NCBI GenBank assembly: GCA_963837925.1
Contig: CAWIPK010000008.1
Coordinates: forward strand, 90,708 to 154,707
Direction: 5' to 3'
Length of the DNA stretch: 64,000 bases
Origin: an uncultured Chloroflexia bacterium
Lineage (GTDB): Bacteria; Chloroflexota; Anaerolineae; CG2-30-64-16
Shown piece by piece: positions 11,914 through 63,747 of this stretch. Each line of letters starts with the position of its first letter. Within the stretch, counting starts at the first letter, position 1. Under the pieces are notes generated by a model. The model did not search any database. It worked only from the letters and a program-made list of their open reading frames with translations, and was not told the origin of the DNA. A program made the translations under genes and the position numbers.

Positions 11914-11919
11914 GCAAGC

Positions 11920-13871: not shown

Positions 13872-14240
13872 ATGGCCAAAATACTCCTGGTGGATGACTC
13901 GGGTCTTTCGCGCCGCATCCTGCGCCGGATCCTCGAGCCGGCCGGTTACGAGGTGGTGGAGGCCGAGGACGGCATGGGCGCGCTGGAGCGTTACTACCTG
14001 GAGCGACCCGATGCGGTCATGCTTGACATGACCATGAGCGGAATGCACGGTCTGGACGTGCTGGCGCAACTGCGACAGATGGACCCCAAGGCCGTCGTCA
14101 TCGTCGCGACCGCGGACGTCCAGGATTCCAGCCGCCAACTCGCCGTGGCCGGCGGCGCAAAGAGCTTCTTGACCAAGCCGTTTACGCCTCAACGGGTGCT
14201 CGATACGATCAGTGCCGCGTTGGAGGTACACGATGCTTAG
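13872..14240 (+). CDS. cheY: Second CheY-like response regulator
   Basis: KILLVDDS, LDMTMS, FLTKPF; ATG after GGGAG. Confidence 0.85.
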   Translation: MAKILLVDDSGLSRRILRRILEPAGYEVVEAEDGMGALERYYLERPDAVMLDMTMSGMHGLDVLAQLRQMDPKAVVIVATADVQDSSRQLAVAGGAKSFLTKPFTPQRVLDTISAALEVHDA

Positions 14241-14833
14241 TGCCGAACAGAACGATGCCTTGACCGAGGTGATTAACATCGGGTTCTCGCGGGCTGGTGC
14301 CTCGCTTTCGGAGTTGACCGGCCATCGCGTGCTGCTTGACCCGCCCCAGGTCGCCATCTATCCGATCACCGATCTCGGCAAGGCCCTCGGCACCATCATC
14401 AAGGGCGACATCGCCACCGTACACCAGATTTTCGGCGGCCCGGTCGCGGGTGACGCTATGCTGATCCTCACCCAGGAAGACGCGAACTCTGTTGGCCCGT
14501 CTCCTGACGGGTGACGAGCGCCGGGGCCGGACACTGGAGGTCACCGATCGTGAGGTGCTGATGGAGACCGGCAACATCCTGTTGAGCGCCTGTCTCGGCA
14601 CCTTCGGCAACCTCTTGCAGGTGCACATCACCTTCACCGTGCCGCGCTTGCACGTGGAGGCGCTGGACGGACTGCTCGATAGCCTGGTCATCGGTTCCGA
14701 AGAACTGCGCTACGGTCTGGTGGTATTCGCCAACTTCCGCCTGCGCGACAGCGAAGTCGGTGGTTTTCTGGTGATGGTTCTCGGCATCGCGTCGCTCGAC
14801 CGCCTGATCCAGGAGGTCGAGAAGCTGGGCTGA
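14233..14833 (+). CDS. cheC: CheC-family phosphatase (+1 frameshift ~14488)
   Basis: DALTEVINIG and EVLMETGNI (two ExxN motifs) split across ORFs 14212 and 14492. Confidence 0.85.
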
Positions 14834-15066
14834 ACGGAAGGGGCTGACCAAGAACTCCTCGTATTGCAGCTACTCCTGCAGTCGTTCGCTCCCCCCATCC
14901 CCTCGCGCCCGTTGCCCGTACCATCTGGAAGCGAGCATGCTGACCGATGTCGCTCAGGTAGTAAGCTAATTAGGATCATCGCGGCAACTTATCGATCGCG
15001 GTGTATCTGCTCGCGACGCTGCCATCGGCCGGGCGAGGGAGGTGAAGACGGAAAGGAGCATCTGGG

Positions 15067-44853: not shown

Positions 44854-44936
44854 GCGTGCTGCGGCGGCGGGGTTCCGGAACGCCGATCACGCGAGGTCCG
44901 TTTCCGCGATCTGTGAAAAACATAACGAGGTGGGAG

Positions 44937-47900
44937 ATGGAACCAGACATCAACCGAGCCGTGGCGGTCGTGGGCGTAGGCGCCATTCTGCCCGATGCTC
45001 TCAGTGCGCCGGCCTTCTGGCAGAACCTGTGCGAAAAGCATTACAGTATTCGCGAGGTGCCAGCGGAACGCTGGAGCGTCGCCGACTACTACGATCCTGA
45101 TCCGGCTGCGCCGGGCAAGACCTACAGCAAGATCGGCGGCTGGGTGCAGGGGTTCAGCTTTGACTCAAAGCAGTACCGCATCCCGCCCCGCGTGGCAGCG
45201 GCGATGGACGAGGGGCAGAAGTGGGCGATCGCCATGACCGCCGAGGTGTTGGCGGATTTCGGCTATCCCCAGCGCGCTCTGAATCTCGAGCGCACCGGGG
45301 TCGTCCTCGGCAATGCCATGGGCGGTGAAATGCACTATCTCACCGCGCTGCACATCCTTTACCCCGAGTATGCCGGCGCCCTGGCTGCCTCCGAGGAATT
45401 CGGCAGCCTGCCGGCCGGCGTGCGCCAGACGATCCTGGCTCAACTGCGGGAGCGCGTCGACCGCAATCTGCCTCCCATCACGGAAGACTCCATGCCCGGC
45501 GAGTTGGCCAATGTCATCTCGGGCAGGGTGGCGAACGTCTTCAACCTCCGTGGCCCGAACTTCGTCACCGATGCCGCGTGTGCGTCGAGCTTTGCCGCGG
45601 TCAGTGCCGCAATCGAGCTGCTGGCTCAAAGACATTGCGACGCGGTCCTGACGGGCGGCGTAGACCACAACAACGGCGTGACCAGCTTTGTGAAGTTCTG
45701 CAAAATCGGCGCGCTCAGCGCTACCGGCTCGCGGCCGTATGGCGAAGGCGCGGACGGTTTCGTCATGGGCGAGGGTGGGGCGCTATTCCTGCTAAAGCGC
45801 CTGGCCGATGCCGAACGGGATGACGACAAAATCTACGCCGTGATCCGCGGCGTCGGTGGGGCGAGCGACGGCAAAGGCAAAGGCATCACGGCCCCGAACC
45901 CTATCGGACAACAATTGGCCATCGCGCGCGCCTGGCAAAATGCCGGCCTGAACCCGAACACGGCCGGACTGATCGAGGGGCACGGCACCAGCACTGCCGT
46001 CGGCGATCTCGCCGAGGCGGAGAGCCTCACCAAGGTCATCTGCGAGGCACCAGCGCACAGCATTGCCCTGGGCTCGGCCAAGAGCAATATTGGCCACCTG
46101 AAGGCAGGCGCCGGCGCGGCCGGGCTGCTGAAGGTGGTGATGGCGGTCCATCATAAACTGCTGCCGCCCACCCTCAATGTCAACCCGCCCAATTCGCGGA
46201 TCGATTTCGCCGCCACGCCGTTTTTCCTGAGCGACGAGTTGCGCGAATGGCCGCAGCCAAACGGTGGGCGCCGGCGCGCCGGCGCGAGCGCGTTCGGTTT
46301 CGGCGGCACAAACTTCCACATTGTAGTCGAAGAGCACCTGCCCGGCTTGCTGGCCGGCAACGGTCATCGATATACCGCTGTCAGCCTCACCATGGAAAAA
46401 CCAGAAAACAAGGATGCGGGAGGCACCCACATGAACGAAGCAGATGACGCAGCCGAGTCGAAGCCGCCTCTGCGTGGCATCCTGGCCCTCGGGGCAGCGG
46501 ATGTGGCAGGACTGCGTTCCGGACTAGACGAAGCGCTGGTGCGGGTCCAGAACGGCTGGATCCCGCCCACCTCTCCCGTCGACCGAGCGGTGCTGAAAGC
46601 CCCCGAGCGCCTGGTGGTTGACTGCGGCCCGCGCGAAGAACTGCTCGATCGCCTGGCCCGCGCCAAGAAGGCGCTGGCGACGGACAGCGCGCCGGCCTGG
46701 AAAGCCCTCCAGGCTCAAGGGGTGTTTCGCGGCAGCGGCCCGGCAGCCGGCAAGATCGCTTTCCTGTTCCCCGGCCAAGGCAGCCAGTATGTGAACATGG
46801 GCCGCGAGCTCGCCGCCACGCAGCCGGTGGTCGCCGAGACCTTCGCCGAGGCCGACCGGGTGATGACCCCGATCCTCGGCCAGCCATTGACCGGCTACAT
46901 CTTCGTGGACCCAGCCGATCGCCAGCGCATGAAACAGGCCGAAGGGGATCTCATGCAGACGGCCATCACTCAGCCGGCTGTGCTTGCCATGGATATGGCT
47001 CTCTATCGCCTGCTGCTCGAGTATGGCTTCCGGCCCGCAGTGCTGATGGGCCATTCGTTGGGTGAGTACGCGGCCCTGATCGCGTCCGGAATCATGCCAT
47101 TCGCCGAGGCGCTGGAAGCTGCGGCCGCCCGCGGCCGCGAGATGACCAGAATAAGCGATGGCGATAATGGCTGGATGGCAGCTATCTCGGCTTCTCCGGA
47201 GGTCATCGAGGAGGTCCTCGCCACGCTCGACGGTTATGTGGTGCCGGCCAATATTAACAGCCGCAGCCAGTGCGTCATTGGTGGTGCTAGCCAGGCCGTC
47301 GAAAAGGCCATCCAGGTCTTCACGGAGCGCGGCATCCAGGCCCAGCGGATACCGGTCAGCCATGCCTTCCACACCGGCATAGTAGCCCCGGCCAGCGTTC
47401 CACTGCGCCAGGTGCTCAATCGGCTGCACGTCTCGCCGCCCCGCCTTCCCCTGGTAGCTAACGTCACGGGCGAGTTCTATCCTGCGACCGCGGACGAGAT
47501 CCGCGATCTGCTGCAAAAGCAGGTCTCGTCGCCCGTCCAGTGGATCAAGGGCCTCGAAACGCTCTACGCCGCTGGCGTGCGCACGTTCGTCGAAGTCGGC
47601 CCCAAGAAGGCCCTCAAAGGTTTCGTCGACGACGTTCTGGGCGACCACCCAGAGGTCGTGGCCTTGTTTGCCAACCATCCCAAGACCGGCGAGATCGCGA
47701 GCTTCAATCAGGTCCTCTGCGGTCTTTACGCGGCGGGTCATGGTGCTGCGCCCGCGGCCGAGAGCGTCACTGCCATGACGGTTCAGCCGGTGCCGGCAGG
47801 CGCGGATAAGGCGATGGGAGCCGGTCCGGTACCGGCCGGCAAGGTCGCGCCGGTCGCACTGGCAGCGAAAGAGACACCTGCTCCGGTTACGACGGCCAAG

Positions 47901-50900
47901 TACCCGGGCCATGGAAGCGGCAACGTGTCTGGTGATGTGGGCGGCAACCAGCCTGGTACTAACGGCAACCAGCCCGGCAACGGCCATCACCCGGCCGCAG
48001 CGGCCCGCCCGGCAGGCACGGGAGACGGCGCTGCCCCTCCGGCCGTCGACCCGTTGTATGCCGCCGGCCAGTTGCTCGCCGCCCTGGGCAATCTGCCCCA
48101 GGCCAATCCCGCTCCCGCTCGCCGGCCCTACGATCGCAATGAGGCGCCGTTGGGTTCGGTGGTCATCAGCGGCACCGGCCTCGGCTTGCCCGGCGCCGAG
48201 AAGTCCGTCATGGACCCCGACAACGCCATGCGTATCCTGCGCGGCGAGCAATTCGTGGACCTGATCCCCGAGCGCTTCCGCAAGGCCATGCTCAAGAAGA
48301 ACATCACGCGCATCGTCAAGGATGAGGATGGCGGCGGCCGCTTCGCCACGATCGACCATCCGGACGACGTGATCAGATTGGCGGGACGAGCGGGCAGCTT
48401 CGACCTCGCGGCCGAATACGGCGTGCCGGAGAAACTGATCGAAGCGCTCGACATCACCACGCAGCTGGCTATGGCCGCCGGATTGGACGCGCTGCGCGAG
48501 GCGGGTATCCCCCTCGTGCAGGCTTACAAGCGCACCACCACCGGCAAACACCTGCCCGAGCGCTGGATGCTGCCGCAGAGCCTGCGCGACGAAACGGGGG
48601 TGATCTTCGCCAGCGCTTTCCCCGGCAACGACCGCCTGGCCGACGAAATCACTCGCAGCTGCACCTACCAGGGACGCCTCGACCAGTTGTCCATGCTGGA
48701 GGACCTGCGCCAATATACGTCGGACGACGCCACCCTGCTAGAGGTCGACCGGCGCATCCGCGCGCTGCGCGAAAGCCTGGCTCGCGAGCCGTACATCTTC
48801 GACCGGCGCTTCCTGTTCCGGGTGCTCTCGATGGGCCACAGCCAGTTTGCCGAGTACATCGGCGCACGCGGTCCGAATACGCAGGTCAACGCGGCTTGCG
48901 CCAGCACCGCCCAAGCGGTCGCTGTCGCAGAAGACTGGATTCGCACTGGTCGCTGCCGCCGTGTGCTGGTGGTGGCTGCCGACGACGTCACCAGCGATCA
49001 CCTGATCGACTGGGTGGGAGCCGGGTTCCTGGCCAGTGGCGCGGCCGCGACCGATGATCGGGTAGAGGATGCGGCGCTGCCCTTCGACCGCCGCCGTCAC
49101 GGCACGATCATGGGCATGGGCGCGGCGGCGCTGGTCCTGGAGTCGGAGGACGCGCTGCGCGAGCGCGGCATGCGCGGCATCGTCGAACTGCTCAACAGCG
49201 AGGTCTTCAACAGCGCTTTTCATGGCAGCCGTCTGGACGTCGACCACATCTCCCAGGTAATGGAGAATTTGCTTACCGGCGCCGAGCGACGCTTCGGGAT
49301 CAGCCGCCAGGCGATCGCTCCTTTCACCGTTTTCATGTCTCACGAGACCTACACGCCTGCCCGGGGCGGCAGCGCCGCGGCCGAGGTGGCCGCCCTGCGC
49401 CACGCCTTTGGTGCCGCGGCTAACGAAATCGTGGTGGCTAACACGAAAGGCTTTACCGGGCATCCGATGGGGGTGGGCGTCGAGGACGTGATCGCGTTGA
49501 AGATCCTCGAGCATTCCATCGTGCCGCCGGTGCCTAACTACCGGGAGGTCGATCCCGAGCTGGGCACGCTGAACTTGAGCCGCGGCGGTCGCTACCCGGT
49601 TCAATACGCCGTTCACCTGGCGGCAGGCTTCGGATCGCAGGTTGCCATGACTCTGACGCGCAAGATTCCGGGCGGCCTGGAGCGCGTCGACAACCAGGCG
49701 GCCTATCAGCGCTGGCTGGCCGACGTTGCCGGCTACGACTGGGCGGAGACGGAGGTTGTCAAGCGCGTGCTGCGTATCGTCGACCGCGGCGCGCCCACCC
49801 GGCCACCTGCTCCCAGCACCTGGCGCTACGGCATCGGCCCGAGCGAGCGAGCGTCCGCTCCCGGCGACGGCTTGATGGCTACCCATCGCCCAGCGCCGAT
49901 GGCGATCGTCGCGCAGGCCCTGTCCGGCTCCGTGCCCGGCGAGGGACCGGTCGCGTTACCGAGCGACGGGTCGGCCGGCTCCGGGAACGCCCAAGCTGGC
50001 AATGGCCACTTCGAGCGCGGGGTGGCGCCCGTCCCGGCGGCGACCGCCGCCGGCAACGGACACCACGTTCATGCCAGGCCGGCCGGCGAAAGCCAGGCAC
50101 CGCTACCCGGGATCTCTCTGACCCCGGGCCGGGAGGCCCCGCCAGAACCAGCCGGGCAGATCGCGGCTGCCCCGGCTGCACTCGCGGAGCCGCCGGCGGC
50201 ACCGTCCGCCGCGGTCATCGACCCGGTGCAAGCGCAGGTGCTCGAACTGGTAGCCCGCAAGACGGGCTATCCCGAGGACATGCTCGACCTGGACCTCGAT
50301 CTGGAGGCCGACCTGGGCATCGACACCGTCAAGCAGGCGGAGACTTTCGCCGCCATCCGCGAGACCTTTGCCATTCCCAAGCTGGAAAACCTCAGGTTGC
50401 GGGATTATCCGACCCTGGCGAGCGTGATCGGCTTCGTCTACAAGATGCGGCCCGACCTGGCGCAGGAGCAGGCGGTTCCATCAGGTGCGGAGACTACGGT
50501 CGAAGAGTGGCGACTGGCCGCAGCCCCGTCTGGCGCTCCTGCCGCCAGCGAAGACCAGCCAGCGGCAGCCGATATGGTCGCGCAGCAGGTGCTGGCGCTC
50601 GTCGCCGGGAAGACGGGCTATCCCGAGGACATGCTCGACCTGGACCTCGATCTGGAGGCCGACCTGGGCATCGACACCGTCAAGCAGGCGGAGACTTTCG
50701 CCGCCATCCGCGAGACCTTTGCCATTCCCAAGCTGGAAAACCTCAGGTTGCGGGATTATCCGACCCTGGCGAGCGTGATCGGCTTCGTCTACAAGATGCG
50801 GCCCGACCTGGCGCAGGAGCAGGCGGCCTCGCCCGCGGCATCGGCCACTGCCCAACCGGCGGAGGCCGGCGGGGGGATCACAAAGGCCGAGCCGCAGATC

Positions 50901-53900
50901 GCAGTGGCTCGCACCGGCGCCGCCTCAACCCCGGCGGGCGATGACCCGGTCAAGTTGCAGGTGCTGGCCCTCGTCGCCGACAAGACCGGTTATCCCCAGG
51001 ATATGCTGGATCTCGACCTGGACCTGGAGGCCGACCTGGGTATCGATACGGTCAAGCAGGCCGAGACCTTCGCTGCAATCCGCCAACTATTCGACATCCC
51101 CCGGCTCGAGAACCTGAAGCTGCGGGATTATCCCACCCTGGCCAGTGTGATCGGCTTCGTCTACGAGATGCGCCCCGACCTGGCACCACCCGCCGCCGGC
51201 GCTCCTCGAGATGGGGCTGAAGGTGCGGGCGAAGGGGCGGCCGGTGGGGCCACCGTCCCCGTGGTCGAGCCGCCGTCGCCCGCCGCCGAGGCTGCCGCCG
51301 GCGCGCCTGCCAGTGGGCCAGAAGCCGCGGCCATGGCAGATGCCGGCTTGGCCGCCGCCCTGGCCGAAGCGGACCGGATTCCCCGCCGTATCCCCATGCC
51401 CGAGCTGCGGCCGGTCCTCGACTTGTGCAAGCCCAGCGGGGTTACTCTCGACGGCGACACCCGCGTCGTGGTTGTCGCCGACCAGGGCGGCGCCGGGAAG
51501 GCGCTCGCCGAGGCGCTTGAACAGCGCGGCGTGAGGGTAATGGAGGTGAAAGGCAGCCCGGCGGCCGGCGCCTTGGAGGCGCAGATCAAGGGCTGGCTGG
51601 CGGAGGGGCCCATCCAGGGCGTGTATTGGTTGCCGGCGCTGGATGAAGAGCCGGCTATCGAGCAGATGGGGCCGGCAGATTGGCAAGACGCCGTCCGCCT
51701 GAGGGTCAAGAATCTCTACACCACTATGCGCGCGCTCTACGAATCGGTCGCGACCGGTGGCACCTTCCTCGTGTCGGCCACCCGCCTCGGCGGGCTGCAC
51801 GGCTACGACCCAGAAGGCGCGTCGGCGCCACTAGGCGGCGCCGTCACCGGCTTCACCAAGGCCTACAAGCGGGAGCGCCCGGAGGTTCTCGTCAAGGCGG
51901 TGGATTTTGCGGTGGAAGCTGCGCCTGGCGAGCTGGCCGAGCGGTTGCTGGCCGAGACGCTCGCCGACCCGGGCGCAGTCGAGATCGGCTACCGGGCCGG
52001 CCGGCGCTACAGCGTTGCTCTGCAAGAGGTCTCTGCAGTCGACGGTCAGCCGGGCATGCACCTGGATGACGAAAGCGTATTCCTGATCACCGGCGCCGCG
52101 GGGGGCATCACGAGCGCGATCGTGACCGATCTGGCGGTTGCCAGCCGGGGGACCTTCTACCTGCTGGACCTGGTGCCCGCTCCAGATCCCGCCAATCCGC
52201 TGATCCCGCTTCTCGATGGCGACCGCAAGGCACTCAAGGCAAAGCTGAATGAGTCGCTCAAGGCGGCCGGCGAGCGGCCAACCCCGGTCAAGATCGACAA
52301 ACAAATCCTGACGCTCGAGCGAGACGCTGCGCTCTTGCGCATGCTCGAGGCGATCCGGTTGGCCGGCGGCACTGCCCACTATCACAGCGCCAACCTGCTC
52401 GATCCCGCCTCCGTGAACGCGGTCGTCGACGAGATTCGCCGGCGCCACGGGCGCATCGACGTCCTGCTGCACGCGGCCGGGCTCGAGGTCAGCCGCACGC
52501 TGCCCGACAAGGAGCCCAAGGAGTTCGATCTGGTCTTCGACGTCAAGGCGGAGGGGCTGTTCAACCTGGTTCAGGCCACGCGGGGCCTGCCCATCGGGGC
52601 CGTGGTCGGCTTCAGCTCGGTGGCAGCTCGCTTCGGCAACGCCGGCCAGACCGACTACAGCGCGGCCAATGACCTGCTCTGCAAGGTGCTCAGCAGCATG
52701 CGCCGCTGGCGCGCGGAAACGCGGGCCATCGCCATCGACTGGACGGCCTGGGCGGGCATCGGCATGGCCACCCGTGGCTCCATCCCACGCATCATGGAGC
52801 AGGCCGGCATCGATATGCTGCCTCCCGAGTGCGGCGTGCCGACCATTCGGCGCGAGCTGACGGCCGGTGGCACGCGCGGCGAGGTGGTGATCGCTCAGCG
52901 CCTGGGGATTATGCTGGAGGAGTTCGACCCGACTGGCGGGCTCGACACAGAGAAGCTCGCTTCTCGCCTGGCCGCACGCGCTCGGCCCCTGCCGATGCTC
53001 GGCGCTGTCAAGGGAGCAGCGCTGCACGCTGGCCTGCAAGTCGAAACCACCCTCGATCCTCGGGTCCAGCCGTTCCTGGCCGACCATGCGATGGAAGGGA
53101 CCCCGCTCTTGCCGGGCGTCATGGGACTCGAGGCTTTTGCCGAGCTATCGAGCCTCATGACAGGCGATCGCGACCCCGGCCTTCATCCGGTGTTCAAGAT
53201 CGCGAACATACAGTTCGCCAGTCCCTTCAAATACTACCGCTGCGAGCCGCGCAGCTTCCTGCTCAGTGCACATGCTCATCCTGCCCAGAACGCCGGCCTG
53301 GTGGCTCATGTCGAACTCACCTCGACCATCCAGCCGCCGGTGCGCGGCCGCACCGCCGCGGCCCCGAAAGACACCGCATCCATAGCAATCGGCGCCGTTC
53401 CCTTGCCGGGCGGTCCCAAGCTGCATTTCGTCGCCGATGTTCGACTCGACGCGCAGGCGGAGGCGGGCCCGGCCAGGGCCTTCAGTGCTCCTTCTCCCGA
53501 TGCGCTCTCGATCCCGGCCGCCGATATTTACCGGGTGTATTTCCACGGACCGGCCTACCAGGTGATCGAAAGGGCGGAGGTTTCCGGCGATACGGTGACG
53601 GCGCTGATGGCCGCTAACCTCCCGCCAGCTACGGAACCGGCGGACGCCGAGACTTCTGATGGCGCCCCGCCTGATCGAGCTATGCTTCCAGGCCGCCGGT
53701 CTCTGGCTGATCCAGAACAAGGGAGTTATGGCCCTACCGATGGCCCTTGCGGCAGTGGAGGTCTATCACCGGCCGGAAGAAGCCGAGGGCAAACGGCTTT
53801 ACGCCCTGGTGAACGCCGTCAGCGAGGACGGCGTCCGGGACGGCGGCGAGGACGGCATCGAATTCGACGCCCAGGTGGTGGACGAGACGGGCAAGGTCTA

Positions 53901-53961
53901 CGTGGCCCTCAGCGGCTATCGGACCGTCCCATTGCCCGGTGACGTCAGCCTGGGTGCCTGA
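44937..53961 (+). CDS. Type I PKS/FAS-like (PfaA-related) megasynthase KS-AT-KS-ACPx3-KR-DH (+1 frameshift ~53655)
   Basis: KS1 DAACASS/HGTST/GHLK; AT GQGSQ/GHSLG/HAFH; KS2 NAACAST/SHETYT/TGHPM; 3x [14 protein letters not shown]; [16 protein letters not shown]; [14 protein letters not shown] with PRLIELCFQ in the shifted frame. Confidence 0.92.
50259..50826 (+). repeat. 217-bp identical direct repeat (ACP1 50259-50475, ACP2 50610-50826)
   Basis: Base-by-base reading shows two identical copies; ACP3 has diverged at synonymous sites. Confidence 0.9.
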
Positions 53962-54006
53962 GTTCGCTCGCAAATTGAAGCGTGGCGGCGAAGACCCGCC
54001 CGTGCC

Positions 54007-54038
54007 GGCGCAGCGGCTGCGATCACAGCCGCTGCGCC
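54007..54038. repeat. Perfect 13-bp stem hairpin without a U-tract
   Basis: GGCGCAGCGGCTG-CGATCA-CAGCCGCTGCGCC between the megasynthase and the carboxyltransferase. Confidence 0.75.
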
Positions 54039-54069
54039 CCCGAAATCGCACAGAGTTGGGAGGAATTGT

Positions 54070-55614
54070 ATGAAAGACCGGTTAGCGGAGTTGCAGGAGA
54101 GGTACGCGAAAGCGGAGGCCGGCGGCGGCGAAGCGCGTATCGCTGAACAGCACGCGAAGGGCAAGATGACCGCCCGCGAACGGATCGCCTACCTCGTCGA
54201 TCCGGACAGCTTTCAGGAGTTCGGCCATCTGATGACTCATCGCATGACCGATTTTGGCATGGCCGGCAAGGCTTTTCCCGGCGACGGCGTCGTAACCGGC
54301 CTGGGAAAGATCAACGGGCGCCGCGCGGCGATTTTTGCGCAAGATTTCACCGTCCTCGGCGGGTCATTTTCGGAGGTCCAATCGCAGAAAGTTTGTCGCC
54401 TGATGGATATGGCCCAGGACAGCGGGATCCCGATCATCGGTTTGCTTGACTCGGGTGGCGCGCGCATCCAGGAGGGCGTGCGGTCTCTGTCGGCCTACGG
54501 GCAGCTCTTTGTGCGCAACGTCCTGGCTTCGGGGGTAGTGCCGCAGATCTCCGTACAGATGGGCCCGTGCGCAGGCGGCCAGGTCTACTCGCCGGCGCTC
54601 ACGGACTTCATCGTGATGGTGCAGAGGACGAGCTTCATGTTCATCACCGGGCCCGAGGTCATCAAGTCGGTCACGGGTGAACAGGTCGACTTCGAGTCGC
54701 TCGGTGGCGCGCAGGTGCAAAACAGCGCCAGCGGTGTGGCCCACTTCGCCGCCGAGGACGAGTGCGCCGCGCTCGACCTTACCAAGCAACTTCTCTGCTA
54801 CCTACCGCAGAACAACACCGACGAGCCGCCGTGCACGGGTCCCCAGGATGACCCGAACCGCCGCGATTCGGCCTTGAACAGTCTGGTACCGGAGGACAGA
54901 AACAAGCCCTACGACATGCACGCGGCCCTTCAGAGCATTTTCGACGTGGACAGTTTCCTCGAAGTGCAGGCTCAATTCGCGCAGAACGCGATCGTCGGGT
55001 TTGCCCGGCTGGACGGGCGTCCGGTCGGCGTCGTCGCCAACCAACCCGCGTACCTGGCCGGTGTATTGGACATCAACTCGGCCGACAAGATCGGGCGTTT
55101 CGTGCGCTTCTGTGACGCCTTCAACTTCCCGATCGTCACCTTCGTCGATTCACCCGGCTATTTACCCGGCGTTGACCAGGAGCACGGCGGGATCATCCGG
55201 CATGGTGCCAAAGTGATTTATGCCTACTGCGAGGCGACGGTGCCGAAGATCAGCGTGGTGTGTGGCAAGGCGGTCGGTGGGGCCTACATCGCCATGAGCA
55301 GCAAGATGATGCGCTCGGATCTGGCATTTGCCTGGCCGACGGCGGAGATCACGGTGATGGGGCCGGAGGGTGCGGTCAACATCCTCTACCGCGCCGAGCT
55401 CGCCAAGGCCGCGGACCCTGTGCAGCGGCGCCAGGAACTCGTGGACGAATACTCGGAGCGTTTCCAGACCCCATACGCGGCTGCAGAAATGGGCTTCGTC
55501 GACGAGGTGATCGAGCCGGCCGTCACCCGCCCACGCCTGATCGCCGCCCTGCAATACTTACGCAGCAAGTCGCAATGCAACCCGCCGCGGAAGCATGGTA
55601 ATATCCCGCTCTAA
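54070..55614 (+). CDS. Acyl-CoA carboxyltransferase beta subunit (PccB/MmdA/transcarboxylase 12S-like)
   Basis: GKMTARERI, GDGVVTG, DSGGARIQEG, GPCAGG, GGIIRHGAK, VMGPEGA, KHGNIPL. Confidence 0.94.
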   Translation: MKDRLAELQERYAKAEAGGGEARIAEQHAKGKMTARERIAYLVDPDSFQEFGHLMTHRMTDFGMAGKAFPGDGVVTGLGKINGRRAAIFAQDFTVLGGSFSEVQSQKVCRLMDMAQDSGIPIIGLLDSGGARIQEGVRSLSAYGQLFVRNVLASGVVPQISVQMGPCAGGQVYSPALTDFIVMVQRTSFMFITGPEVIKSVTGEQVDFESLGGAQVQNSASGVAHFAAEDECAALDLTKQLLCYLPQNNTDEPPCTGPQDDPNRRDSALNSLVPEDRNKPYDMHAALQSIFDVDSFLEVQAQFAQNAIVGFARLDGRPVGVVANQPAYLAGVLDINSADKIGRFVRFCDAFNFPIVTFVDSPGYLPGVDQEHGGIIRHGAKVIYAYCEATVPKISVVCGKAVGGAYIAMSSKMMRSDLAFAWPTAEITVMGPEGAVNILYRAELAKAADPVQRRQELVDEYSERFQTPYAAAEMGFVDEVIEPAVTRPRLIAALQYLRSKSQCNPPRKHGNIPL

Positions 55615-55631
55615 TCGGAGGACAGCCGCCA

Positions 55632-57149
55632 ATGAATGAGAACCGCGCTAACCCGCTGAAGATAACCGATGTCGTGCTGCGCGATGGGCACCAGTCGCTG
55701 CTGGCGACCCGCATGCGCACAGAAGACATGCTGCCGATTGCGGAGCAGCTTGATGATATCGGCTTCTGGTCGCTCGAAGTCTGGGGCGGGGCCACCTTTG
55801 ACACCTGCCTGCGCTTCCTGAACGAAGATCCCTGGGAGCGCCTCCGCCAGTTGAAAGCGCTCATCAAGAAGACCCCGCTGCAGATGTTGCTGCGTGGCCA
55901 GAACGTGGTGGGCTACCGCAACTATCCAGACGACGTGCTCGAGCGCTTTATCGTCAAGGCGCGCGAGAACGGCATGGACATTTTCCGCATTTTCGACGCC
56001 CTCAACGACATCCGCAACATGCAGACCGCCATGCGCCTGGCCAAGCGCGAGGGCGCGCATGTCCAGGCAACGGTTTGCTATACGATCAGCCCGGTACACA
56101 CCGTCGACACGTTCGTCGAGATGGGCAAGCGCCTGGCCGAGCTGGGCGCCGACTCCATCTGCATCAAGGATATGGCCGGCCTCATCACGCCCTACGTGGC
56201 CTATGAGCTGGTCTCGAAGCTAAAGGCCACGGTCGCGGTGCCGATTCACCTGCACTCGCACTATACGAGCGGCATGGCCTCGGCAGCCTGCGTCAAGGCT
56301 GCAGAGGCAGGTGTTGACATAATCGATTCTGCCATCTCCACGCTGTCGCTGGCCACCTCGCACCCGCCGACCGAGACCATGGTCGCCATCTTCAAGGACA
56401 CGCCGCGTGACACGGGGCTGGATCTCGAGAAGTTGAGCAAGATCGCGGCCTATTTCGGCCAGGTGCGCAAGAAGTACCATGCCTTTGAGTCCCAGTTCGT
56501 CGGCGTCGACACCAACGTGCTGACCTTCCAGATCCCCGGCGGCATGTATTCCAACCTGGCCAGCCAGCTTCGCGAGCAGAACGCCTTGGACAAACTGCCT
56601 CTGCTGTTGGCCGAGATACCGCGCGTGCGCGCCGAGCTGGGCTACCCGCCGCTCGTCACGCCGTCCAGCCAGTTCGTGGGCACCCAGGCCACCCTGAATG
56701 TGATCCTGGGCGAGCGGTACAAGGTGATCCCCAAGGAGATCAAGGCCTACGTCAAGGGTCTGTATGGCAAGTCGCCGGGGCCGATCGATCCCCTGGTGCA
56801 AAAGCTGGCGATCGGTGACGAGGAAGTGGTCGAGTGTCGTCCGGCCGACCTGCTCGCGCCGGAGATGGAGAAAGCAGCCGCCGAGGTGGGCGGCCTTGCG
56901 CGCAGCGAAGAAGACGTGATCAGCTACGCGCTCTTCGGACCGGTCGCCCGCGAGTTCCTGGAAAAGCGGGAAACCGGCGATCTGCTAGAAAAGGAGGTCG
57001 TCGCCGCGATCGCTGCGGCGCTGATCCCCGCGCGGGCGAATGGTAGCCCGTTCCTTCCCGAAAGTGCTGCCGTCCCAGACGGTGATGGTTCGGGCTGGAT
57101 GACGGCCAGGCGTGCGTGGTTGAACAGACCGTCATGGAGGAACGAATGA
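55632..57149 (+). CDS. Pyruvate/oxaloacetate carboxyltransferase (transcarboxylase 5S/OadA/PycB-like), no biotinyl domain
   Basis: LRDGHQSLLATRM, EVWGGATFD, CIKDMAG, LHSH, PGGM, GYPPLVTPSSQ; no EAMKM motif. Confidence 0.92.
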   Translation: MNENRANPLKITDVVLRDGHQSLLATRMRTEDMLPIAEQLDDIGFWSLEVWGGATFDTCLRFLNEDPWERLRQLKALIKKTPLQMLLRGQNVVGYRNYPDDVLERFIVKARENGMDIFRIFDALNDIRNMQTAMRLAKREGAHVQATVCYTISPVHTVDTFVEMGKRLAELGADSICIKDMAGLITPYVAYELVSKLKATVAVPIHLHSHYTSGMASAACVKAAEAGVDIIDSAISTLSLATSHPPTETMVAIFKDTPRDTGLDLEKLSKIAAYFGQVRKKYHAFESQFVGVDTNVLTFQIPGGMYSNLASQLREQNALDKLPLLLAEIPRVRAELGYPPLVTPSSQFVGTQATLNVILGERYKVIPKEIKAYVKGLYGKSPGPIDPLVQKLAIGDEEVVECRPADLLAPEMEKAAAEVGGLARSEEDVISYALFGPVAREFLEKRETGDLLEKEVVAAIAAALIPARANGSPFLPESAAVPDGDGSGWMTARRAWLNRPSWRNE

Positions 57150-57625
57150 AGCTGAAGGTCGATGGCCGGAGTTACGATGTCGAGTTGCAGCTGGACGCGG
57201 TGGTCGTGGGCGGCGTTACCCTCAAGACCACCGTGCTTCACGATAATGGCGAAGCCACGGTGAGGGTGGGTGGGCGGCCGTACAAGGTGAAGGTCAAGGA
57301 CGAAGGGACGGTACTCGTCGACGGCCGGCAGTTCACGGTTGAGGTGAACGGCTACGGCTCGGTCGGCCGTTCAGCGCCAAAGCCCGTCAAGGTCCCGCTC
57401 AACGGCAACGCCAAGGGCGCAGTGTTCGCTCCTATGCCCGGCAAGGTCCTGTCGCTGCGCGTGCAAGAAGGCGACCGGGTCGCGAGCGACGCCGTGCTGC
57501 TGATCCTGGAAGCCATGAAGATGATGAACGAGATTAAGGCTCCCTGCGAGGGCATCGTGAAGCGCATCTCCGTGGCGCCCGGTCAAACGGTGAACAATGG
57601 CGACGTCATGCTGATCGTCGAATGA
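57146..57625 (+). CDS. Biotin carboxyl carrier protein (1.3S-like)
   Basis: APMPGKV, LEAMKM; ATGA overlap with the upstream gene. Confidence 0.93.
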   Translation: MKLKVDGRSYDVELQLDAVVVGGVTLKTTVLHDNGEATVRVGGRPYKVKVKDEGTVLVDGRQFTVEVNGYGSVGRSAPKPVKVPLNGNAKGAVFAPMPGKVLSLRVQEGDRVASDAVLLILEAMKMMNEIKAPCEGIVKRISVAPGQTVNNGDVMLIVE

Positions 57626-57666
57626 TCGCCGCACGGTAGGGGAACCGCGAAGTCAGGCAGGAGGCT

Positions 57667-59652
57667 ATGAATATGGACATCCCCGCGTACGTAAACAACC
57701 GCCGGTTGCGCATCTGGGTTCAGGAGATGATTGCCCTGTGCAAGCCCGATAGCGTGCACTGGTGTGACGGTTCACAACAGGAATATGACGCGCTCTGCGA
57801 GCAGATGGTGAATTCGGGCACGTTCATCCGGCTCAATCAGGAAAAGCGGCCTGGCTGCTTCTTGTGCCGCTCTGACCCGAGCGACGTGGCGCGCGTCGAG
57901 GACCGCACGTTCATCTGCAGTTGCGGCAAAGAAGATGCCGGGCCGACCAACAACTGGGTCGACCCGCAGGCCATGCGCACGACCCTGACCGGTCTCTTCG
58001 ACGGCTGCATGCGCGGGCGCACGATGTTCGTCATCCCCTTCAGCATGGGGCCGCTGGGCTCTCCCATCGCCCACATCGGGATCGAGATCACGGATTCACC
58101 CTACGTCGTCGCCAACATGCGGATCATGACCAGGATGGGACGCCGGGTGCTCGACGTGCTTGGCGATGGGGAGTTCGTGCCTTGCCTGCACTCCGTTGGC
58201 ATGCCACTGACCCCTGGCCAGCCTGACGTTCCCTGGCCGTGCAATAGCGAGCACAAGTACATCGTCCACTTCCCCGAAGACCGGTCTATCTGGTCCTTCG
58301 GGAGCGGCTACGGCGGCAATGCTTTGCTGGGCAAGAAGTGCTTTGCGCTGCGCATTGCCTCGGTCATCGCCCGGGACGACGACTGGCTGGCCGAGCACAT
58401 GCTCATCCTCGGCCTCGAGTCGCCGGAAGGTGAGAAGACCTACGTCGCGGCGGCTTTCCCAAGCGCCAGCGGCAAGACGAACTTCGCCATGCTGATCCCG
58501 CCGGAGGCCTTTGCCGGCTGGAAGGTAACCACCGTCGGCGATGACATCGCCTGGATCAAGCGCGGCCCCGATGGGCGGATCTACGCCATCAATCCCGAAG
58601 CGGGCTTCTTCGGCGTCGCCCCGGGCACCTCGGAAAGCTCGAACGCCAACGCCATGGCCTCCATCGCCCGCAACACGATCTTCACCAACGTCGCGCTGAC
58701 ACCCGACGGTGACGTCTGGTGGGAGGGTATGACCAAGGCTCCGCCGCCGGAGCTGATCGACTGGCGCGGTCAGCCCTGGACACCAGAGAGCGGGCGTCCG
58801 GCCGCACACCCCAATGCGCGCTTCACCGCCCCGGCATCCCAGTGCCCTTCGATCGACGAGGGCTGGGAAAACCCGCGTGGCGTGCCGATCAGCGCCTTTA
58901 TCTTCGGCGGGCGGCGCAGCAGCGTGGTTCCCCTGGTCTACCAGGCCTTCAATTGGAGCTACGGGGTGTATACGGCGGCCACCATGGGCGCGGAGACGAC
59001 GGCCGCAGCCGCGGGCCAGGTTGGCGAGGTGCGGCGGGATCCGATGGCCATGCTGCCGTTCTGTGGCCACCACATGGGCGACTACATCAACCACTGGCTG
59101 CAGTTCGGCCGCACGCTCCGCAACCCGCCGCCCATCTTCAACGTCAATTGGTTCCGCAAGGACGGGGAGGGCCATTTCCTCTGGCCCGGATTCGGCCAGA
59201 ACATGCGCATCCTCAAGTGGATCGTGGAACGGGCACACGGGCGGGCCAGCGGCGTCGAAAGCCCGGTTGGCTGGATGCCATGTTACGAGGACATCGACTG
59301 GCGCGGCCTGGAGGACTTCTCGCCCAGGCAGTTTCAGGAGATCATGGGGGTCGACCGCGATCAGTGGAAACAGGAGGTCCTCTCCCACGACGCGCTCTTT
59401 GTCAAGATCTACGACCGGCTGCCGAAGGAGATGATCTTCATTCGGGAGCTGATGCTCTCGGCGCTCTGGCGCTCGCCGGAACGCTGGGACCTGATTGCGG
59501 AGGACGTGAACGGCGCGGACGCCCTTCGTGGCGCGGCCTCTCTTGCCGAGGGGCAGGCCCCCACGCTTGGTCAGGCGGCCGAAGCGAACGGCAAGGCCGC
59601 GACCGGCGGCGAGCTCGCCGGGCAGGCAGCGCCGGCATGGGGTGTGCATTGA
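57667..59652 (+). CDS. pckG: Phosphoenolpyruvate carboxykinase (GTP)
   Basis: [64 protein letters not shown]. Confidence 0.95.
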
Positions 59653-59691
59653 TGAGTGGAGCGGACCATAATCGACTTGGGAGGTGCTGAG

Positions 59692-59934
59692 ATGCCTGTG
59701 TTCGAGGTCAAGATCGATCAGAAGACGTACCACGTAGACATTCCGTGGCTGGGCGCCAAACCGCTGCCGGTGATCGTGGATGGGCGCCCGCTCCAGCTTG
59801 TGATCGGCGAGGCGCAGGGCCCGGCGGCGCAGGAGTTCAAAGAGGCCGAGCTGCAGGCCGAACAACGGCTCACGCTGTTCACGAGTGGAAGACCCGTGCC
59901 GGCTGAGTGGCACGCGAGCATCCGAGAGGAATAA
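59692..59934 (+). CDS. Small protein resembling the N-terminal docking region of biotin carriers
   Basis: GGAGGT RBS; FEVKIDQKTYHVDI..VIVDGRP resembles KLKVDGRSYDVEL of the carrier; no MKM motif. Confidence 0.6.
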   Translation: MPVFEVKIDQKTYHVDIPWLGAKPLPVIVDGRPLQLVIGEAQGPAAQEFKEAELQAEQRLTLFTSGRPVPAEWHASIREE

Positions 59935-59974
59935 AGATCTGGCGGTCCTACGCCGGCCATGGAGGCATTACGAG

Positions 59975-60547
59975 ATGACTGCGGTGAATGTTTTTCGTCC
60001 GGCGCTGCGGCGCTATAGCCTGGCTTATGATTCGGCCTGCATGGTGGCCGGTAGCCTGCTGGTCGCGCTAAGCGCCCAGGTAGCGCTCCCGCTGCCCTTC
60101 AGTCCCGTTCCAATCACGGGCCAGACACTAGCCGCGCTGCTCGTAGGCGCATTACTGGGTAGGCGCCTCGGCGCAGGCGCGCTGCTGATTTACCTCGCCC
60201 AAGGCGCTCTCGGCCTGCCGGTCTTTGCCGGCGGTGGCCTCGGGCTTGCCCGGCTGGCCGGTCCAACCGGTGGCTTCCTGGCCGGCCTGGTCGTCGCTGC
60301 CTATCTGGTGGGCTGGCTGGCCGAACGCGGCTGGGATCGGCGCCCCGCCACGACGGTGCTTGCCATGCTGTTCGGCAACGCCGTGATCTATGCAATTGGT
60401 CTGATCTGGTTGGCCCGTTTCGTGGGTGCCGGCCAGCTGTTGGCAGCGGGGCTGCTGCCATTCATCCCCGGCGACTTGCTGAAGATTGCGCTGGCTGCCG
60501 GGCTCCTGCCCTCGGCCTGGACCTTGTTCGGGCGAGCGCAGAAGTAG
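59975..60547 (+). CDS. bioY: Biotin transporter BioY
   Basis: PFSPVPITGQT, GLPVFAGG, GPTGGFL, PFIPGDLLK. Confidence 0.93.
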   Translation: MTAVNVFRPALRRYSLAYDSACMVAGSLLVALSAQVALPLPFSPVPITGQTLAALLVGALLGRRLGAGALLIYLAQGALGLPVFAGGGLGLARLAGPTGGFLAGLVVAAYLVGWLAERGWDRRPATTVLAMLFGNAVIYAIGLIWLARFVGAGQLLAAGLLPFIPGDLLKIALAAGLLPSAWTLFGRAQK

Positions 60548-60787: not shown

Positions 60788-62272
60788 GTGTCCCGCAGCC
60801 GCGTCATCGTCATCACAATCGGTGTGATGCTCGCCCTGTTCGTGTCCGCGGTCGAATCAACCGTGGTCGCGACTGCAATGCCGACGATCATCAGTCAATT
60901 GGGTGGCCTGGCGATCTATAGCTGGGTTTTCTCCGCCTACATGCTCACTTCGACCGTGACCGTGCCTATCTATGGCAAGCTGGCCGATCTGTACGGGCGC
61001 CGGCCGATCTTCCTGATCTCGATGACCCTGTTCCTGGCCGGCTCCTTCCTGAGCGGCCATTCGGCCGGCATGACCGAGCTTATCGTGTTCCGCACGCTGC
61101 AGGGGTTGGGCGCCGGTGGCCTGATCCCGCTCGCTTTCATCATCATCGGCGACCTGTTCAGTTTCGAGGAGCGGGCGCGCATGCAGGGCCTCTTTTCCGG
61201 CGTGTGGGGCGTCTCTTCGATCATGGGCCCGCTCCTGGGCGGTTTCCTGGTCGATCGCATTTCGTGGCATTGGGTGTTTTACGTCAACATCGGCCCCGGC
61301 ATCCTGGCGACGCTGCTGGTGATTTTCGGCTGGCATGAGGCGGCGGCCGCCCGTGCCGGCGGGTCGCGGCCGTCTCTGCCCATCGATTTTGCCGGCACCG
61401 CCCTGTTGAGCGGCGCCGTCGTCGCCCTGATGCTGGGGCTGTTCAACCTCAGCTCCATCCTCAGCGCCGGCCTACTGGCTCTGGCCGTCGCGCTGTTTGC
61501 CTGGCTGCTGCGGGTCGAGCGCCGTGCGCTTGATCCTATATTGCCCTTGCCCCTGTTCCGCAGTCGTCTGTTCCTCATCGCTTGCAGTCAGGGCCTGCTG
61601 GCCGGCTGGGCGATGTTTGGCGGCAGCTCTTTCGTCCCGCTCTTCGCGCAGGGTGTCCTCGGCGTCAGCGCGACTCTGGCCGGCGCTACCCTGACGCCCG
61701 AGATGCTGAGTTGGACCATCGCCAGCGTCATCGGCGGTCAACTGCTGCTGCGTTTCGGGTACCGCACTGTCGCGCTAGCCGGAATGGTCGCCCTGGTCGC
61801 CGGCAGCCTCTTGATGGCGCAGTTGAACGTGCACAGCACCTTGTCCGGGCTGATGGTCAGCTTCGCCCTGATGGGTGCCGGCATGGGTTTGTGCCTGCCG
61901 GCCTTTCTCATCGCCGTGCAGAATGACGTGCGCAGAGAGGTGATGGGGACGGCCACCGCCACGTTGCAATTCAGCCGCAGCATCGGCGGCACTATCGGCG
62001 TGAGCGTCATGGGTGCTGTGCTCAGTTGGCGTCTGGCAGCCGGACTGGTGGCAGCGGGCGTCGATCCCGCCACGGCCCCGCTCGGCGATCTGGTCGATCC
62101 GTTGACCGGCCCTGCCGTCGGCGCGGTCAGTGGCGCCCTCAAGATCGCCCTGGCGGGCGGTATTCGGGCCATTTTCGTCGTTGCCTTGCTGGCCGCCGGC
62201 GCGGGCCTTGTCGCGACTGCGTTCGCCCCGCGCGAACGGCTCGTGGCCCGGAAAGAAGGAGTGCCAAGTTGA
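60788..62272 (+). CDS. MFS drug/H+ antiporter (DHA2, 14-TM type)
   Basis: TVVATAMPTI, YGKLADLYGRR, RTLQGLGAGG, WHWVFYVN. Confidence 0.92.
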   Translation: MSRSRVIVITIGVMLALFVSAVESTVVATAMPTIISQLGGLAIYSWVFSAYMLTSTVTVPIYGKLADLYGRRPIFLISMTLFLAGSFLSGHSAGMTELIVFRTLQGLGAGGLIPLAFIIIGDLFSFEERARMQGLFSGVWGVSSIMGPLLGGFLVDRISWHWVFYVNIGPGILATLLVIFGWHEAAAARAGGSRPSLPIDFAGTALLSGAVVALMLGLFNLSSILSAGLLALAVALFAWLLRVERRALDPILPLPLFRSRLFLIACSQGLLAGWAMFGGSSFVPLFAQGVLGVSATLAGATLTPEMLSWTIASVIGGQLLLRFGYRTVALAGMVALVAGSLLMAQLNVHSTLSGLMVSFALMGAGMGLCLPAFLIAVQNDVRREVMGTATATLQFSRSIGGTIGVSVMGAVLSWRLAAGLVAAGVDPATAPLGDLVDPLTGPAVGAVSGALKIALAGGIRAIFVVALLAAGAGLVATAFAPRERLVARKEGVPS

Positions 62273-63747
62273 AGGTCTTGCTAGCCTATCCCGAGTTTCC
62301 CGACACGTTTTGGAGCTTCAAGCATGCTCTGCGCTTTATTCGCAAAAAGGCGGGCGCGCCGCCGCTGGGTCTGCTGACCGTGGCCGCCATGCTGCCCGCC
62401 GATTGGGAACTGCGCCTGATCGACCTGAATATCCAGCCGCTGAGTGAAGAAGATCTGTCCTGGGGCGATATGGTTTTCGTCAGCGCGATGGTCGTCCAGC
62501 GTGAGGGAAGCCGCCAGGCCATCCGGCAGTGTAAGGAGGCCGGCTTGAAGATCGTGGCCGGCGGTCCGCTCTTTACGGGCGAGTACGAGAGTTTCCCCGA
62601 GGTGGACCACTTCGTGCTAAACGAGGCGGAGCTGACGCTGGAACCTTTCCTGGCAGATTTATCTGCCGGCTGCGCCCAGCGCGTCTATGCCAATGCAGAG
62701 CACGCGGATATCCATACCACCCCGGCTCCCCGGTGGCGACTGGCCCAGCTCGAGCATTACGACAGCGTATCGATCCAGTTCTCGCGCGGGTGCCCGTTCA
62801 ACTGCGACTTCTGCAACATCACCGCCTTGCTCGGCCGCAAAGTACGCACCAAGACCACAGAGCAGATAATCGGCGAGCTGGAAGACCTGTACCGGGCAGG
62901 TTGGCGCAAGAACGTCTTCTTCGTCGACGACAACTTCATCGGCAACAAAAAGCTGCTGAAAGCCGAGGTACTGCCGGCGCTGATCAAATGGCGCAAGGGC
63001 AAGAAGGGCATGGCATTTAATACCGAGGTCTCGATCAACCTGGCCGACGACGATGAGCTATTGCGCCTGATGGCTGAGGCCGGCTTCAACACCGTATTTG
63101 TCGGCATCGAGACGCCCAGTGAGGCCAGCCTGCTGGAATGCAGTAAGTACCAGAACCGCAACCGCGACCTGGTCGCCAGCGTCAAGAAAATCCAGCGCGC
63201 CGGCCTGCAGGTCCAGGGCGGCTTCATCGTCGGCTTCGACAGCGATACCAGTTCGATCTTCCAGCAGCAGATCGACTTCATCCAGCGCAGCGGCATCGTG
63301 ACTGCGATGGTGGGCTTGCTGCAGGCACCGTACGGCACCCAGCTCTACGAGCGGATGAAGAACGAGGGCCGGCTGGCGGACGAGATGACCGGCGACAACG
63401 CCGACGGCTCGACCAACATCGTGCCAAAGATGGGGCTCGAGCAGTTGCGCCAGGGCTATCGCTGGCTGCTGGACCAGATCTACGCGCCTCAGCCCTACTA
63501 CGCGAGGGTCAGGACATTCCTGCGCGAATACAAGACTCCCCCGGTGAACGTCCACATCGAGCCGCAGTACGTGCTGGCCTTCTTCCGTTCTGCCTATCAG
63601 TTAGGCCTTAAGGGAAAAGAGCGCGCTCAATACTGGGGCCTCTTGGGTTGGACGCTCTTTCGCCGCCCGAAGCTCTTTCCCCTGGCCGTGACCCTTGCCA
63701 TCTATGGGTTCCACTTCCGCCGCGTGGCCGAGCTGCACGTGCAGTAG
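62269..63747 (+). CDS. B12-binding radical SAM protein (DUF4070/HpnP-like class)
   Basis: YPEFPDTFWSF, PPLGLLTVAA, SRGCPFNCDFC, FFVDDNF, VFVGIET, GGFIVGFD; TTG start overlaps the MFS stop. Confidence 0.9.
   Translation: MKVLLAYPEFPDTFWSFKHALRFIRKKAGAPPLGLLTVAAMLPADWELRLIDLNIQPLSEEDLSWGDMVFVSAMVVQREGSRQAIRQCKEAGLKIVAGGPLFTGEYESFPEVDHFVLNEAELTLEPFLADLSAGCAQRVYANAEHADIHTTPAPRWRLAQLEHYDSVSIQFSRGCPFNCDFCNITALLGRKVRTKTTEQIIGELEDLYRAGWRKNVFFVDDNFIGNKKLLKAEVLPALIKWRKGKKGMAFNTEVSINLADDDELLRLMAEAGFNTVFVGIETPSEASLLECSKYQNRNRDLVASVKKIQRAGLQVQGGFIVGFDSDTSSIFQQQIDFIQRSGIVTAMVGLLQAPYGTQLYERMKNEGRLADEMTGDNADGSTNIVPKMGLEQLRQGYRWLLDQIYAPQPYYARVRTFLREYKTPPVNVHIEPQYVLAFFRSAYQLGLKGKERAQYWGLLGWTLFRRPKLFPLAVTLAIYGFHFRRVAELHVQ

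Follow-up and report, generated by a model that had tools for sequence, protein, structure and literature searches.

Threonine at the acceptor position of the tandem acyl carrier protein domains of a Type R lipid synthase from an uncultured Chloroflexia bacterium

The stretch analyzed here (64,000 nucleotides of contig CAWIPK010000008.1, positions 90,708 to 154,707, assembly GCA_963837925.1; termed the window) derives from an uncultured Chloroflexia bacterium and contains one very long open reading frame (ORF), 44856-53942 on the forward strand, which encodes a 3028-aa lipid synthase. The invariant serine that accepts the 4'-phosphopantetheine arm is a textbook rule for fatty acid, polyketide, and non-ribosomal peptide synthesis, and is built into motif definitions and annotation pipelines (the PROSITE pattern PS00012 requires Ser at the start of helix II of the carrier). 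In the three acyl carrier protein (ACP) domains of this synthase, the residue at this position is threonine. This was first noticed in a model-made reading of the letters alone (the sequence-only reading), and translation of the ORF confirms Thr in all three domains, with codons ACC (50325), ACC (50676), and ACG (51048). The features of the locus, and of a related locus elsewhere in the genome, are given in Table 1.

Table 1. Predicted features of the synthase locus (window positions) and the phosphopantetheinyl transferase of the paralogous cluster.
Feature	Position	Strand	Basis
Type R PfaA-like iterative synthase, KS1-AT-KS2-ACPx3-KR-DH	44856-53961	+	Pfam domains; stop located against homologues
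KS1, residues 34-494	44955-46337	+	PF00109, PF02801, PF16197; Cys/His/His motifs present
AT, residues 636-921, GHSLG and HAFH motifs	46761-47618	+	PF00698, 149 bits
KS2, residues 1120-1620	48213-49715	+	second PF00109/PF02801 stretches; ACP_syn_III/Thiolase_N matches at 1339-1387
ACP1, Thr codon ACC 50325-50327 within an 11-residue motif	50220-50465	+	translation, ACP alignment, model
ACP2, Thr codon ACC 50676-50678	50571-50816	+	translation
ACP3, Thr codon ACG 51048-51050	50943-51188	+	translation
KR, residues 2408-2633, YSAAN motif	52077-52754	+	PF08659, 86.5 bits
PKS-type DH, HxxxGxxxxP motif; final ~100 residues in frame +1 after frameshift	52992-53961	+	PF21089
Acyl-CoA dehydrogenase-like gene, 565 aa	43156-44853	+	Pfam Acyl-CoA_dh_N/M/1
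12S-type carboxyltransferase	54070-55614	+	PF01039, 615 bits
Transcarboxylase 5S / oxaloacetate decarboxylase alpha-like subunit	55632-57149	+	PF02436, PF00682
Biotin carboxyl carrier-like protein, 169 aa	57116-57625	+	PF00364 Biotin_lipoyl
GTP-dependent PEP carboxykinase, cluster membership uncertain	57667-59652	+	PF00821, PF17297
Sfp-type PPTase	L089 15776-16573, contig C3		PF01648 73.8 bits against cut-off 25; Sfp alignment

The synthase and its three carrier domains

The synthase is predicted to consist of a ketosynthase (KS1), an acyltransferase (AT), a second ketosynthase (KS2), the three ACPs, a ketoreductase (KR), and a polyketide synthase (PKS)-type dehydratase (DH). The motifs which we take to be catalytic (Cys/His/His in KS1 and KS2, GHSLG and HAFH in the AT, YSAAN in the KR, and HxxxGxxxxP in the DH) are all intact in the translation, and HAFH is presumably a malonyl-type signature.

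The ACPs of PfaA, from the marine polyunsaturated fatty acid (PUFA) synthases, read LGIDS-type around the acceptor site. The comparison with PfaA made in the sequence-only reading stands as a resemblance, since PfaA (TIGR02813) likewise has the order KS-AT-tandem ACPs-KR-DH, an iterative mode, and a dedicated PfaE-type phosphopantetheinyl transferase (PPTase). The window synthase differs in that its TIGR02813 score (958.4 bits in 3 stretches) is under the curated cut-off of 1010.1, a second KS lies ahead of the ACPs, and Thr replaces Ser; none of the PfaB, PfaC, or PfaD partners is present in the window. The gene belongs instead to a distinct architecture, and from its sequence is assigned to the Type R secondary lipid synthase family. 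The Type R cluster, as described, has a single pfaA homologue (KS-MAT-CLF-ACP(3-6)-KR) with a PPTase gene after it and an uncharacterized product, and is found in Koribacter, Solibacter, Elusimicrobium, and Roseiflexus, of the Acidobacteria, Elusimicrobia, and Chloroflexi; in Koribacter, an acetyl-CoA-carboxylase-type gene lies between synthase and PPTase (Shulse and Allen, 2011, PLoS One 6:e20146; PMC3098273).

The window synthase shares with Type R the single-pfaA layout with a second KS, three ACPs, and a KR, as well as the carboxyltransferase neighbor. KS2 is 62-78% identical to loci of Roseiflexus (including locus L016 of a metagenome-assembled genome, among the close relatives), Terriglobia, Sulfotelmatobacter, and others, and an Elusimicrobiales homologue is among the matches to the ACP region. 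It differs from Type R as described in that the window copy has no downstream PPTase, the "CLF" has an active-site Cys, an acyl-CoA dehydrogenase (ACAD)-like gene lies upstream in every one of the 65 related loci whose upstream sequence extends to 1.8 kb or more, and fusions of the PPTase to the synthase exist. KS2, the domain termed "CLF" in 2011, retains ACAS with the active-site Cys and both His motifs, and by these residues resembles a functional second ketosynthase more than a chain-length factor. The words "threonine" and "serine" each occur 0 times in the 2011 paper (PMC3098273), and the Thr site is not reported there. A search of open papers for later work on Type R organisms returned only the 2011 paper and unrelated genomics.

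The three ACPs read the same 14-residue stretch, with Thr at the site. Each matches PF00550 (28.4-31.2 bits, cut-off 20.8), and in each the Ser expected at the start of helix II of such carriers is replaced by Thr. In a phmmer comparison with PDB sequences, the ACP1 Thr aligns with the phosphopantetheine-bearing Ser of PigH (DLGVDSI/DLGIDSV), CurA (DLGLDSI), and type II ACPs. An AlphaFold2 model of the domain, built on 65 homologous ACPs, predicts a four-helix fold (pLDDT 91.5; helices 2-15, 36-50, 66-76, and 78-81) in which Thr36 is the first residue of helix II, and its top Foldseek matches in the PDB are all ACPs (TM 0.76-0.85). In the ACP alignment, an invariant block (L26-E41) is centered on Thr36, and T65 is nearly invariant.

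At the DNA level, ACP1 and ACP2 have an exact 217-nt repeat in common (50259-50475 = 50610-50826), and ACP3 is 79-80% identical to them, with a different Thr codon. The sequence-only reading had argued from two different codons that an error was unlikely. Because of the repeat, the two ACC codons are not independent and amount to one observation; chance or a sequencing error is excluded by the family-wide conservation described below. Soil-metagenome contigs span only parts of 50000-54100, and one of them, X1, covers ACP1 (50201-50444) with 0 differences.

Aside from a single indel, the gene is free of stops over 3028 codons. The indel is one extra T of a TT pair at 53654-53655, near the end of the DH, which puts the final ~100 residues of the assembled ORF out of frame. 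The C-termini of five homologues (tblastn) follow frame 1 to ~53648; from tail position 1154-1157 the alignment runs on in frame 2, which ends in a stop at 53959-53961. X1 also spans 53556-53816, where it lacks one letter at 53654 and otherwise has 0 differences, which restores the frame of the DH end; with one contig at a low depth of 3.1, this is suggestive. An assembly error, or else a rare variant, is the probable source of the extra T.

Threonine across the synthase family

Of 8000 candidates scored in a homologue search with the ACP region, 6545 matched at E≤1e-3. In the window protein and 120 listed homologues of these 6545, all 597 ACP motifs (3-8 per protein) carry Thr, as counted with a motif pattern that permitted any residue at the acceptor site. 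The candidates in this search were picked via shared five-residue words, which could favor Thr forms. The family was therefore re-sampled with KS2 alone (residues 1120-1620), its hallmark domain and a query independent of the ACPs; this confirmed 547 genome stretches, and 80 loci were retained. Sixty-eight of these reach the ACP region, and in them Thr occupies 219 of 219 ACP motifs. The other 12 stop before the ACPs, and one match to the pattern (DIGPDPLR, in L062) was set aside as it is not an ACP.

A KS2 HMMER search of 1.84 billion representative sequences yielded 8521 matches at E≤1e-3, 664 of them at E≤1e-30. Among the best 150 representatives (50% clustering, down to 36% identity), there are 331 Thr motifs and 10 Ser motifs; two further pattern matches (Q and G) fall outside an ACP context. 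A bias of the word index as the source of Thr universality is ruled out by the KS2-only re-sampling and the HMMER search, in both of which the result stood. Thr at the acceptor site, which the sequence-only reading proposed to check for conservation across the clade, is thus a real, family-wide rule and not an accident.

The KS2-selected loci come from Chloroflexota (Promineifilaceae, Anaerolineae, Caldilineae, Ardenticatenia, Roseiflexus, Kouleothrix, and Oscillochloris) and Acidobacteriota (Terriglobia, Bryobacterales, Holophagales, Thermoanaerobaculia, Vicinamibacteraceae, and Blastocatellia), along with delta-proteobacteria, one Deferribacteres/KSB1 bin, and one actinomycete bin. The ACP-region matches additionally include Bacteroidia/Saprospiraceae, Elusimicrobiales, and Kineosporiaceae.

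In the 68 loci, Thr is encoded by ACG (114), ACC (71), ACT (24), and ACA (10), and 31 of the 68 genes use more than one of these codons. With four Thr codons in use and Ser only one base change away, the amino acid itself is under selection. These data also bear on the possibility that the Thr codons reflect pseudogene decay or sequencing error, in keeping with which both the window gene (53654) and a paralogous synthase on contig C3 (AT domain) are frameshifted as assembled. This is highly improbable: Thr is universal in relatives from many phyla, and the window gene has intact catalytic motifs, no stops apart from the one indel, and an extra base that the X1 contig does not share. Decay with close homologues bearing Ser, which the sequence-only reading had named as a contrary outcome, is not what was found, since the homologues bear Thr and the frameshift is absent from an independent contig. 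Sequencing error and a pseudogene were accordingly rejected on family-wide conservation, codon usage, and this contig.

The few Ser-bearing members are informative. P0184 has five DLG[IV]DSVK motifs, P0242 a single Ser motif, and P0223 two ELGVDSVKQAE motifs whose flanks are nearly equal to those of the 11-residue Thr repeats of P0218; in P0234, Ser, Thr, and Ser ACPs occur within one polypeptide. In a maximum-likelihood tree of KS2 (88 family rows, with KS1 as a long-branch outgroup), the Ser-only P0184 and P0242 and the mixed P0234 are each nested in a Thr clade (SH-aLRT 99-100); the tree was limited to rows that have an ACP motif and at least 420 aligned KS2 positions, and so does not include P0223. 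Since each of these three rows is nested among Thr rows, at least three separate switches are indicated at the acceptor position. Ala, Gly, Asp, and Asn are absent from this site in the ACP-context motifs of all three homologue samples, and because only Thr or Ser is found in such motifs, a hydroxyl appears to be needed there. As judged from these sequences, the exchangeability of Ser and Thr fits a residue whose hydroxyl is used, and not a mere helix cap.

The phosphopantetheinyl transferase of the cluster

Whole-genome analysis with PF01648 (6.48 Mb, 10 contigs) identifies two PPTases, an AcpS-type enzyme on contig C4 and an Sfp-type enzyme on C3. There is no match on the window contig (C8), and the only PF00550 matches on that contig are the three ACPs; the sequence-only reading was therefore correct that the window holds neither a PPTase nor a stand-alone ACP. 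Only 108 nt separate the synthase stop (53961) from the carboxyltransferase gene (54070), and the downstream PPTase expected of Type R is absent from this interval.

The Sfp-type PPTase is instead encoded in a paralogous cluster on C3 (locus L089, G000:C3:1326000-1345900, positions 5455-16573), where it follows an ACAD-like gene and a synthase. This ACAD-like gene is 77% identical to the window copy, and the C3 synthase is 61-63% identical to the window synthase along most of the protein, with 54% in the C-terminal half; it carries two DLGVDTVK ACPs, and a one-base indel within the AT domain (~L089 9447-9450) breaks it in two. The C3 cluster has the PPTase and no carboxyltransferase, and the window cluster has the reverse. 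A second case of cluster duplication is seen in one delta-proteobacterial bin (contigs L051 and L052), which has two ACAD-synthase-PPTase clusters.

The C3 PPTase aligns with Sfp at low identity (E = 5e-8, 36 bits) via SISHS, GxDIE, and W..KE..K motifs. H101, D121, K164, E165, and K169, which correspond to the Sfp catalytic motifs, are invariant in 37 aligned cluster PPTases. With this enzyme, the sole Sfp-type PPTase of the genome, as query, a homologue was found downstream of the synthase on the same strand in 52 of the 56 loci whose sequence continues for 1.5 kb or more past the gene. Among these 52, the PPTase frame opens no more than 1.2 kb from where the synthase frame ends in 40; in the other 12, mostly from Acidobacteriota, it follows after 3-6.5 kb, usually occupied by a carboxylase-like ORF of ~5.6 kb. 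The 4 loci without a PPTase are from Acidobacteriota and end about where it would be expected.

In addition to this synteny, 42 of the 150 representatives (among P0146-P0266) carry the PPTase as a C-terminal extension of the synthase itself, a fusion that Pfam confirms for P0184 and P0234. Thr alone is found in 38 of these fusions and Ser alone in one, another has both, and the remaining two are fragments in which no ACP motif is present. The alpha subunit of fungal fatty acid synthase (FAS) also has a PPTase as its C-terminal domain, and the fusion in these distant family members, a self-priming arrangement, recalls that enzyme.

We consider it likely that Thr is the attachment site of phosphopantetheine and that the arm is set by the Sfp-type PPTase of the cluster, acting in this genome in trans from C3. 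Attachment is inferred here, in part because the synthase family is regularly accompanied by its own PPTase, for which an arm on Thr is the probable outcome. The genome-wide PF00550 matches are one AcpP-like carrier (contig C5), the three Thr-ACPs of the window, and the two Thr-ACPs of the C3 paralogue; with no other carriers than these, the Sfp-type PPTase has no detectable Ser client in this genome.

The sequence-only reading had set this possibility beside another, in which the Thr-ACPs are never modified and serve as structural or docking repeats, while CoA thioesters, or the chains on a Ser-type ACP in trans such as AcpP, are what the synthase acts on. An AcpP-like carrier does exist on C5, the E. 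coli AcpS does not modify an S36T variant of its ACP (PMC3340395), and no precedent for phosphopantetheinylation of Thr was found in open papers. This alternative nevertheless leaves both the synteny (52/56 loci) and the fusions (42/150) unexplained, along with an Sfp-type PPTase that has no other detectable client. Tandem ACP arrays are the pattern of working PUFA synthase carriers, which the arrays of 2-8 copies match, and a purely structural helix cap would be expected to be Asp, Asn, Gly, or Ala in some cases, where only Thr and Ser are seen. Modification of Thr by a specialized PPTase is thus favored by synteny, fusion, the restriction of the site to Ser and Thr, and the nested Ser variants, and on the same data unmodified domains are unlikely.

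The possible encounter of the two proteins was modeled as a complex of PPTase, CoA, Mg, and ACP, with a 37-row PPTase alignment and a 65-row ACP alignment as inputs. The complex scored 0.80, and the best control 0.07; the mark applied is reached by 58 of 80 solved complexes and by 2 of 110 mismatched pairs. Contact agreement between runs is at least 92%, with partner pLDDT of at least 85. In the predicted interface, the catalytic Glu165 touches Thr36 of the ACP, and Glu123 pairs with Val37. The cluster PPTase resembles Sfp (PDB 1QR0, 4MRT) in its catalytic motifs and in the predicted docking of ACP helix II at the catalytic Glu, and differs in that the residue presented to it is Thr and in that, among relatives, it is often the C-terminal domain of the synthase.

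The model also bears on a further possibility, that the PPTase acts on the synthase and the arm, or another CoA-derived group, is placed on a different residue, or that Thr bears a different modification. The nearly invariant T65 offers another well-conserved hydroxyl in the ACP. This seems even less probable than unmodified domains, given that Thr36 lies exactly at the Ser position in both sequence and fold, at the center of the invariant block, and that the complex model sets it at the catalytic Glu165. Furthermore, the natural swaps from Thr to Ser occur at this position, and no CitX/MdcG-type gene is present among the cluster genes scanned by Pfam.

Several observations weigh against attachment to Thr by the cluster PPTase. 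The PPTase is missing from the window's own cluster, and both paralogous synthases hold one frameshift as assembled (that of the window being contradicted by the X1 contig). The PF00550 scores of the individual domains are modest (28-31 bits). No residue of the PPTase separates the partners of Thr-ACPs from that of the Ser-type P0184 in a 13-sequence alignment containing one complete Ser-type PPTase, a number that gives no statistical power. The complex model is blind to Ser versus Thr chemistry, and, because Sfp complexes with peptidyl carrier protein (PCP) have been solved, its pass may only mirror likeness to known complexes. Additionally, the S36T form of E. coli ACP can neither take up 4'-phosphopantetheine nor function, so that the canonical AcpS rejects Thr (PMC3340395). 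That case involves the same substitution at the same position in a different enzyme pair; in the window family, Thr is the conserved natural state and has its own PPTase. A search of open papers, with subscription journals and supplements outside its range, found no report of Thr as a phosphopantetheine acceptor or of ACPs reading GxDT, so that prior characterization of GIDT ACPs as ordinary carriers, which the sequence-only reading had named as a contrary outcome, was not encountered.

Neighboring genes and implications for the pathway

The ACAD-like gene upstream ends 2 nt ahead of the synthase ORF. Its best NCBIfam matches, which include acryloyl-CoA reductase and prolyl-PCP dehydrogenase, are all under the cut-off. 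From its sequence and position, the encoded enzyme is a candidate enoyl reductase or dehydrogenase of carrier-bound acyl chains, and could be the reductase that the synthase lacks.

Downstream of the synthase, the row at 54070-60547 consists of a 12S carboxyltransferase, a 5S subunit, a biotin carrier, a GTP-dependent phosphoenolpyruvate (PEP) carboxykinase, and a BioY biotin transporter. Homologues of the carboxyltransferase and biotin carrier are kept downstream in related loci, and in most relatives the PPTase gene is placed between the synthase and the carboxyltransferase. Acidobacteriota relatives have a single carboxylase-like ORF of ~1900 aa in place of the transcarboxylase row. The carboxyltransferase, 5S subunit, and biotin carrier would form a transcarboxylase supplying malonyl-CoA, and the row as a whole may be an ATP-sparing supply line from oxaloacetate to malonyl-CoA. 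The Pfam scan of the cluster genes turned up no thioesterase or other release enzyme. Farther downstream, a B12-binding radical SAM protein with DUF4070 (62026-63747) overlaps the end of a major facilitator superfamily (MFS) transporter ORF (60788-62272) as listed.

Taken together, the proposed pathway would begin with the installation of the 4'-phosphopantetheine arm on Thr, in place of Ser, of the tandem ACPs by the dedicated Sfp-type PPTase of the cluster. The three ACPs of the window would be modified in trans by the enzyme encoded on C3 beside the paralogous Thr-ACP synthase. The resulting holo-ACPs would then shuttle malonyl units and growing acyl chains among KS1, KS2, AT, KR, and DH, with the upstream ACAD-like enzyme as the probable reductase of the pathway.

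The family is known as Type R, and neither its Thr acceptor nor its PPTase fusions are reported in the searchable open literature. With 8521 library matches to its hallmark KS, the family is very large and widespread, and it departs consistently from the Ser rule and yet keeps a dedicated PPTase. With somewhat less assurance than for the attachment site itself, we favor the view that this is the first natural carrier system with O-phosphopantetheinyl-threonine, set by a co-evolved lineage of Sfp-type PPTases in thousands of soil, sludge, and hot-spring bacteria from at least six phyla. If true, this would define a new post-translational modification; the substrate rules of PPTases would need to be widened, and predictors of ACPs and PPTases in which Ser is obligatory would have to be revised. 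An orthogonal tool would also be at hand in a Thr-specific or Thr-tolerant PPTase-ACP pair, e.g., as a tag/enzyme pair for protein labeling. In the cell, the pairing of Thr with its own PPTase may keep these synthases orthogonal to the housekeeping AcpS and to ACP phosphodiesterases. Furthermore, the finding brings into view a lipid pathway that is abundant in Acidobacteriota and Chloroflexota.

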